This document shows positions 578 through 4,479 of a DNA stretch of 4,479 nt, piece by piece. This stretch comes from a virus (Duplodnaviria > Heunggongvirae > Uroviricota > Caudoviricetes). Made by a program: the position numbers and the translations under genes. Position 1 is the first letter of the stretch; every line of letters begins with the position of its first letter. Below the pieces are notes generated by a model. The model did not search any database. It saw nothing but the letters and a program-made list of their open reading frames with translations, and was not told the DNA's origin. The stretch lies in IMG/VR virus record IMGVR_UViG_2703718781_000003. One strand, written 5' to 3'.

Positions 578-760
578 ATGGAAAAGTATAAACGAATTCT
601 GTTGAGGTTGACTATGAAAAACGGCCTTGAACTGAAAGCGCCAGTAACTGATGACATCAGCAGAGCACAGGCTTTTGCTATTAAGTGGGTGGCGGTCGGT
701 ATTGCTGTGTCTCCGATGCTGTATGGGCTGGCAAAACTGGTCATTGCGTTGAAATCGTGA
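578..760 (+). CDS. Hypothetical small protein (60 aa) with a C-terminal hydrophobic, probably transmembrane, segment; inserted between endolysin and Rz
   Basis: ATG at 578 is preceded by a Shine-Dalgarno-like AAGGGAGAA 5 nt upstream; TGA stop at 758-760. The C-terminal stretch [22 protein letters not shown] is hydrophobic. It is co-oriented with the late operon. No homolog recognised by eye. Confidence 0.45.
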
Positions 761-772
761 AGAGGATTAAAC

Positions 773-904
773 ATGTCAGACAAACTCATAATGCTGGCGA
801 AGATCCTCTGTGTAATCGTCGGCATTTCATTTTCACTAATGCTGGTTGCTCTTTTTCTTTCCATGGGCTGGATGATGTTATCTTCGTCGGGGCTGCTGGG
901 GTGA
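773..904 (+). CDS. Hypothetical small single-pass membrane peptide (43 aa)
   Basis: ATG at 773 is preceded by AAGAGGA 6-7 nt upstream; translation is [43 protein letters not shown], mostly hydrophobic. Its TGA stop (902-904) overlaps the GTG (901-903) that aligns with the lambda Rz start, a GTGA coupling arrangement. It is absent from the supplied ORF track, presumably because it is short. It is in the same frame as the 578-760 ORF, separated by one TGA. Confidence 0.4.

Positions 905-2588: not shown

Positions 2589-2614
<26 letters not shown>
2069..2614 (+). CDS. Nu1: Terminase small subunit (gpNu1 family); N-terminal DNA-binding domain diverged from lambda, C-terminal two thirds near-identical to lambda Nu1
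   Basis: Translation [36 protein letters not shown]... then ...[60 protein letters not shown]...LSEYIEQSD. From ASEADLQPG onward it matches lambda Nu1 as remembered. TGA stop at 2612-2614. Confidence 0.95.

Positions 2615-4479
<1,865 letters not shown>

Follow-up and report, generated by a model that had tools for sequence, protein, structure and literature searches.

Genes and features of the window

The stretch of DNA analysed here (4,479 nt; IMG/VR record IMGVR_UViG_2703718781_000003), referred to as the window, spans the lysis-to-packaging junction in a lambdoid (lambda-like) E. coli prophage. Its features are as follows.

1–421, + strand: endolysin gene, 3′ part (Pfam PF00959, E-value 4.8e-16; 'lysozyme' in the identical RefSeq locus)
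512–544, + strand: terminator-like stem–loop with a U-rich run (pattern scan; RNA fold z-score −2.5)
578–760, + strand: ORF1, gene for a 60-residue small membrane protein (CDS WP_072095843.1 in the identical RefSeq locus)
758–760, + strand: TGA stop of ORF1, the in-frame stop between ORF1 and ORF2
761–772, + strand: 12 nt spacer AGAGGATTAAAC, carrying the Shine–Dalgarno (SD) sequence GAGGA of ORF2
773–904, + strand: ORF2, gene for a 43-residue small membrane protein (CDS WP_001280927.1)
916–1374, + strand: Rz i-spanin gene (Pfam PF03245, E-value 1.2e-39; 'lysis protein' in RefSeq)
1127–1333, + strand: Rz1 o-spanin lipoprotein gene, inside Rz (Pfam PF06085, E-value 6.9e-21)
1398–1622: 74-residue ORF, 3′ of Rz (hypothetical protein in RefSeq)
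2069–2614: nu1
2589–4295: terminase gene A, broken by a stretch of N; 3′ of A the next gene begins

The 376 nt segment from 540 to 915, which includes both ORF1 and ORF2, shares 100 % identity with an E. coli O145 prophage (strain RM9872), where RefSeq lists, in order, class II holin, YdfR-family protein, lysozyme, two hypothetical proteins (183 and 132 nt), 'lysis protein' (Rz) and hypothetical protein. The resident holin is a class II holin of the S21 type with 71 residues, and the lysozyme is 177 residues long in full-length relatives (the complete ORF is present in locus L011). In those passages of a survey of Stx-phage lysis cassettes that were searched (PMC8136144), lysozymes of the window's kind are predicted to be SAR endolysins and neither ORF1 nor ORF2 is mentioned. 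The Rz start lies 11 nt past the ORF2 stop, and an alternative Rz start at GTG 901 overlaps that stop as GTGA.

The 74-residue ORF 3′ of Rz matches a PHROG profile of 291 positions, phrog_2571 ('unknown function'), in its middle part only. A lambda-type cosN sequence (GGGCGGCGACCT...) is found at 1886–1897, and a 14 bp perfect inverted repeat (GGTCCGACATGAAA ... TTTCATGTCGGACC) at 1985–2047, just 5′ of nu1, is plausibly a terminase- or cosB-related site. When the whole window was searched against Rfam at E ≤ 1, no RNA element was found near the ORF1–ORF2 junction, and the only match was a meaningless sub-threshold one between a miRNA model and this inverted repeat. The nu1 and A genes overlap, and the terminase large-subunit gene is broken by 83 N at 3210–3292, from which it follows that the window derives from a scaffolded or masked assembly. 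The terminator-like stem–loop at 512–544 is located in the 156 nt gap between lysozyme and ORF1, and thus within what should be a single late transcript; the pattern scan returned as many such elements as are expected by chance.

Two further open frames cross this region. The Rz frame is open for 231 nt 5′ of the Rz ATG, through all of ORF2 (685–1374, + strand), and a 205-codon antisense frame (364–981, − strand) spans the whole ORF1–ORF2 region and is also open in relatives, its length varying from 126 to 251 codons. We treat both as effects of composition. In alleles of the L006 type an 11 nt deletion shifts ORF2 into the frame upstream of Rz, and the product is still 43 residues long, ending on the Rz ATGA.

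The ORF1 and ORF2 proteins and their relatives

Three start codons are candidates for ORF1: ATG 578, with a close SD sequence, ATG 614 (M13; GAGG-N6) and GTG 545; many of the database entries are a 48-residue form. The N-terminal 30 residues of the protein are basic and are followed by a transmembrane domain (TMD) at approximately residues 31–57. ORF1 matches PHROG 1115 (E-value 5.9e-42), and families 1115, 4493 and 3246 are all listed as of 'unknown function'. Its 119 database relatives occur in E. coli, E. marmotae and Salmonella, the E. coli and Salmonella versions sharing 70–85 % amino acid identity; a scan of one genome per species returned no relatives, and a tblastn search of phage records found ORF1 in 14. 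In Salmonella prophages the homologue, which is 78–85 % identical, ends in TAA, Rz begins 10 nt later and ORF2 is absent; the holins that accompany this homologue belong to three different families and the endolysins to two types. In two loci (L098 and L099) ORF1 lies outside the lysis cassette altogether, after tail-fibre genes, where its stop is TAG and a terminator-like hairpin comes next. The Qin prophage of E. coli K-12 has no small genes at the corresponding place, rrrQ directly abutting rzpQ.

ORF2 encodes a single, very hydrophobic TMD with no charged residue beyond K10, and matches PHROG 4906 (E-value 3.1e-21; 'unknown function'). Nearly all of its 119 relatives are 43–44 residues long and all of those with a named host are from E. 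coli; this length is kept down to about 65 % identity, and the core motif VG.SFS is invariant. The gene was found by tblastn in 191 phage records, including many Stx-converting phages. It also occurs without ORF1. Two Stx2 phages, VT2phi_272 and P13374 (the latter from an E. coli O104:H4 strain), carry it between ant (antirepressor) and Rz in a frame that differs from that of ant, and one annotated ORF2 start in this set overlaps the ant stop. In loci L002 and L010 it follows an unrelated gene for a 63–70-residue protein (PHROG 6632), with other stops and spacings, and L002 and L009 have the reverse order, with ORF2 ahead of a truncated ORF1. Small indels damage ORF2 in about 10 of the sampled loci, and it is therefore dispensable at least in the prophage state. 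No similarity was detected when ORF1 and ORF2 were compared with each other, so the pair is not a tandem duplication.

Coding constraint

RefSeq/PGAP and the phage records annotate two coding sequences here, both as hypothetical proteins, so that the two-gene annotation is already in the public databases and is not new. Neither ORF has a match in Pfam, NCBIfam or PADLOC, and we found no paper that names WP_072095843.1 or WP_001280927.1. The 48-codon core of ORF1 (20 distinct alleles, Salmonella included) has a pN/pS of 0.18 when read in frame, and the two shifted frames give 0.87 and 7.2; the corresponding figures for ORF2 (16 alleles) are 0.49 in frame and 0.71 and 1.28 when shifted. As the alleles were preselected by protein pattern, pN is biased downward and these values are indicative only. 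Both ORFs nevertheless look constrained as coding sequence, ORF2 only moderately so.

That one or both are not genes but frames left open by chance in non-coding DNA between R and Rz we regard as very unlikely. Such a reading would fit the lack of matches in the three collections just named, as well as the properties of ORF2 (43 residues, restricted to E. coli, disrupted in some prophages, pN/pS 0.49), and the region is likewise open on the antisense strand and in the Rz frame. Against it stand the excess of synonymous changes that is specific to the annotated frame, clear in the case of ORF1, the conservation of start codon, SD sequence and length across divergent alleles and different genomic contexts, and the existence of PHROG families for both proteins, ORF1 being shared between E. 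coli and Salmonella at the identity given above.

The ORF1–ORF2 junction

A preliminary description of this locus drew attention to the fact that ORF1 and ORF2 share a reading frame, with one TGA as the sole barrier between them. This is indeed so: ATG 578 and ATG 773 are in frame, the four codons of the spacer (761–772) contain no further in-frame stop, and the ORF2 frame then continues to TGA 902–904. The product of readthrough, anticipated there at about 108 residues with two hydrophobic segments, would have 108 residues and one such segment from each ORF, the best 19-residue Kyte–Doolittle windows scoring 1.90 (ORF1 residues 38–56) and 2.89 (ORF2 residues 11–29). The 72 nt sequence of the window junction recurs without change in 26 records of complete E. 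coli genomes, most of them O145, and since these carry the exact junction it does not result from a sequencing error. The arrangement is not unusual in itself, because by our own arithmetic about 28 % of adjacent genes are expected to show it by chance (a shared frame in one-third of adjacent same-strand genes, multiplied by about 83 % for four spacer codons free of stops). The SD sequence GAGGA (762–766) lies 6 nt 5′ of ATG 773 (GAGGA-N6-ATG).

We gathered 102 related loci from phage records, complete E. coli genomes, IMG/VR contigs and Salmonella and E. coli assemblies; 90 of these plus the window were read for a census of the junction, and 77 have an ORF1–ORF2 junction. The IMG/VR sample consists of the 80 loci most similar to the window ORF1, so that any bias favours the window type. 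The commonest spacer, in 60 of the 77, is 14 nt long (AGGGAGGATTAAGC) and places ORF1 and ORF2 in different frames; it reads AGGGAGGATTAA[AG]C in 59 loci and AGGGAAGATTAAGC in one. The in-frame spacer of 12 nt occurs in 16 loci, the window included, and in the remaining locus, L008 (about 84 % identity), ORF1 stops at TAA and a 17 nt spacer again puts ORF2 out of frame. The 14 nt arrangement has a stronger SD sequence (GGGAGGA) and the same gene order. Among 5,426 complete E. coli genomes there are 479 records with the exact out-of-frame 14 nt haplotype, 426 exact matches to an in-frame haplotype of the O157:H7 type and 26 to the in-frame haplotype of the window, and in all about 45 % of the complete-genome junction records, the O157:H7 lineage among them, have an in-frame spacer. 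Across all the relatives the spacers range from 10 to 17 nt with differing sequences, and the ORF1 stop is TGA in E. coli, TAA in Salmonella and L008, and TAG in L098.

The encoded proteins are essentially alike with either spacer length. The shared frame is thus a by-product of a common 2 nt length polymorphism in the SD region (AAGAGGA versus AAGGGAGGA), and since the proteins remain the same when this indel is present, neither a signal for recoding nor an obligatory fusion product is likely here, as neither would tolerate it. What the junction records is a neutral consequence of two bases, and neither a recoding event nor a broken gene. We note that the genome of RM9872 (NZ_CP028379.1) carries two prophages with the gene pair, at approximately 1,997,800 and 2,549,100, and that these have different in-frame junction haplotypes, which read AAAC and AAGC ahead of the ATG. 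Both spacer lengths occur in the population with both variants, so that all four types exist, a pattern that implies either recombination or repeated mutation inside some 10 nt.

Two genes, probably with separate initiation

These observations are best explained if ORF1 and ORF2 are two independent, probably coupled late genes for membrane micro-proteins whose common frame has no function, a reading to which we assign a probability of about 0.9. It corresponds to one of three possibilities raised in the preliminary description, that of two separate genes in which AAGAGGA serves as the ribosome-binding site, and it is borne out by homologous loci, which contain two genes with the SD sequence and ATG conserved. 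Both genes would be transcribed within the late operon under Q antitermination. Ribosomes would terminate at the TGA of ORF1, and ORF2 would be initiated afresh at its own ATG, 12 nt downstream, by way of the GAGGA sequence directly after the stop. Coupling of the two by termination and reinitiation is likely, judged by the layout of the genes, because the ORF2 SD sequence abuts the ORF1 stop and the spacing is tight. Each product is expected to be an inner-membrane protein with a positive N-terminus and one transmembrane helix, in a predicted N-in/C-out orientation that follows from the positive-inside rule.

The genes are on the same strand, separated by 12 nt, with an SD sequence at the end of the upstream gene, a layout that recalls the tightly packed, translationally coupled genes of lambdoid late operons (for example nu1/A and lambda S-R-Rz); the packing is as close between ORF2 and Rz. 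The ORF1 and ORF2 products are unusually small by comparison (60 and 43 residues), and coupling is here something that we infer. A predicted hairpin pairs the ORF2 SD sequence with 802–809, but it is no better than those of shuffled sequences (z-score −1.4), and no fold at the junction of a kind that might drive recoding or coupling exceeded the shuffled controls.

A second possibility is programmed readthrough, in which the TGA is read as sense by some ribosomes (with tRNA-Trp, for example), giving a functional 108-residue fusion with two helices. UGA is the leakiest stop codon in E. coli, and in phage Qβ programmed UGA readthrough of the coat gene gives the A1 protein; the dual starts of holin genes likewise produce two isoforms. 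The window resembles the Qβ coat/A1 arrangement in that a UGA is followed by an open in-frame extension in an E. coli phage, in-frame haplotypes are frequent (426 + 26 records), the spacer is free of stops, and a fused allele exists in one draft contig. In contrast to A1, neither the frame, the identity of the stop nor the linkage is conserved here, and the downstream part has initiation signals of its own. The frame relation is absent from 60 of the 77 loci and from 479 complete-genome records that encode the same proteins, the longer spacer putting the ORFs out of frame in most of the sampled relatives; TAA or TAG replaces the TGA in others, and the context of the spacer is no better conserved. 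Each gene also occurs alone, there is no known RNA element at the junction and the local fold is ordinary (z-score −1.4). Furthermore, the N-terminal flank of each protein has a net charge of +3, so that a fusion would place a +3 linker in the periplasm, on the wrong side of the membrane by the positive-inside rule. We therefore consider programmed readthrough highly improbable. Low-level readthrough of the UGA may occur in the in-frame alleles, which are common, and a fusion protein made in that way would arise incidentally from basal leakiness.

The alignment with homologous loci that had been proposed as a check on whether the TGA is a sense codon elsewhere gave a single positive case. In contig SKDT01000204.1 of the draft assembly GCA_004797465.1 (locus L091) the equivalent of position 758 is changed, TGA becoming GGA, and ORF1 and ORF2 are fused; this 979 nt contig encodes the only fused protein among the ORF1 relatives (P0039, 96 residues). 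None of approximately 1,000 matching complete-genome records has a sense codon at the ORF1 stop, the GGA allele has no exact match in the 5,426 complete E. coli genomes, and no ORF2 relative is longer than 73 residues. Since the contig differs from the window at just 2 of 979 positions, one of them being this change, the allele is derived and does not represent the ancestral form; the fusion is a rare derived mutation or an assembly error rather than the ancestral or usual state, although its presence in an assembly indicates at least some tolerance of a fused protein.

That a single ancestral gene for a two-helix membrane protein of about 108 residues was split by a nonsense mutation into a pseudogene is extremely improbable, for while the shared frame and the uninterrupted ORF of the GGA allele would accord with it, intact fusions are missing from the 5,426 complete genomes and P0039 is the sole one among the protein database hits, the fused contig is itself derived, the most divergent relatives hold two genes or just one of them, and selection is not relaxed, ORF1 being under purifying selection (pN/pS of 0.18, and 0.49 for ORF2, from alleles preselected by protein pattern). 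Homologues with two separate genes were the finding that the preliminary description itself had named as telling against both a disrupted gene and programmed readthrough, and on that ground the two readings fail.

The endolysin–spanin slot

As two separate genes, ORF1 and ORF2 occupy a position whose contents vary greatly. The gap between the endolysin and spanin genes (421–578 and 761–915 in the window; also L002, L008, L009, L010, L016, L051, L052 and L082) is a mosaic slot that holds, in combinations that differ between prophages, ORF1, ORF2, a 28-residue paralogue of ORF1, a 63–70-residue protein of PHROG 6632, a 49-residue protein or ant, as well as truncated and reordered gene copies. 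In L016 and L052, for example, ORF1 is followed by the 28-residue protein (MSAELIRAMAFAIRIVAIAVLVWAIRWW), a short paralogue of the ORF1 core (PHROG 4493); the motif RAxAFAI[KR] is common to ORF1 and these paralogues. Other small genes, and one for a 60-residue lipoprotein, come after ORF1 in L051 and L082.

Because of this position, and of the exchange there of genes for similar micro-membrane proteins, the most likely role of ORF1 and ORF2 is a non-essential, accessory modulation of the membrane steps of lysis, a suggestion that their location prompts. The main alternative is a moron-like role, since ORF1 is also found outside lysis cassettes, which weakens the case for a strictly lysis-related function. 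Both proteins have the general properties of holins or antiholins, being small, with at least one TMD, and encoded in the lysis cassette between lysozyme and Rz, and neither matches a holin family in Pfam or NCBIfam.

Phage P2 has in LysA an accessory small membrane protein of the lysis cassette. Others are the LydB, LydC and LydD proteins of P1, which are antiholins or extra holin-like small membrane proteins (PMC9025707), and the releasin gp25 of Mu (PMC9239132). The likeness of ORF1 and ORF2 to all of these is that of small TMD proteins encoded beside endolysin and spanin genes; no sequence relationship was found. ORF1 differs from these accessory proteins in being found beside further types of holin and endolysin too and, in one setting, outside the lysis cassette.

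We also consider, as a tentative and rather doubtful extension, that the slot is dedicated to interchangeable micro-membrane proteins (ORF1 and its 28-residue paralogues, ORF2 and PHROG 6632) that tune the membrane steps of lysis, to which trace UGA readthrough could add a two-helix isoform in alleles with an in-frame spacer. If so, these proteins could act on the pinholin, on release of the SAR endolysin or on the transmembrane helix of Rz. More generally, the locus presents two conserved, very small membrane proteins with no assigned role, one of which, ORF2, is encoded directly 5′ of the spanin genes and is present in many Stx-converting phages; if it affects the timing of lysis, then release of phage, and possibly of toxin, would be affected.

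A relationship of the ORF1 TMD to TMD2 of the S21-type pinholin, whether as a mimic or a relative, was considered and set aside, the similarity being too weak for homology (BLASTP E-value of 0.001 in a single comparison; hhalign probability of 5 % over 12 columns; score equalled by 17–20 of 5000 shuffles). A 59-residue protein (P0117) from a 554 nt ENA contig joins the N-terminus of an S21-type holin to the C-terminal helix of ORF1, exactly at the motif W[VA]A[VI]G that is common to both; this chimera could be a recombinant or an assembly artefact.

In prophages with a GH108 endolysin (annotated as such in L008; L008 978–1160, L051 and L082), ORF1, with or without ORF2, is followed by the gene for the 60-residue lipoprotein. 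This protein belongs to PHROG 7528 and has the lipobox LVGC and three cysteines in its mature part; there is no recognizable Rz alongside, and it is possibly an o-spanin-like protein for which no i-spanin partner is evident.
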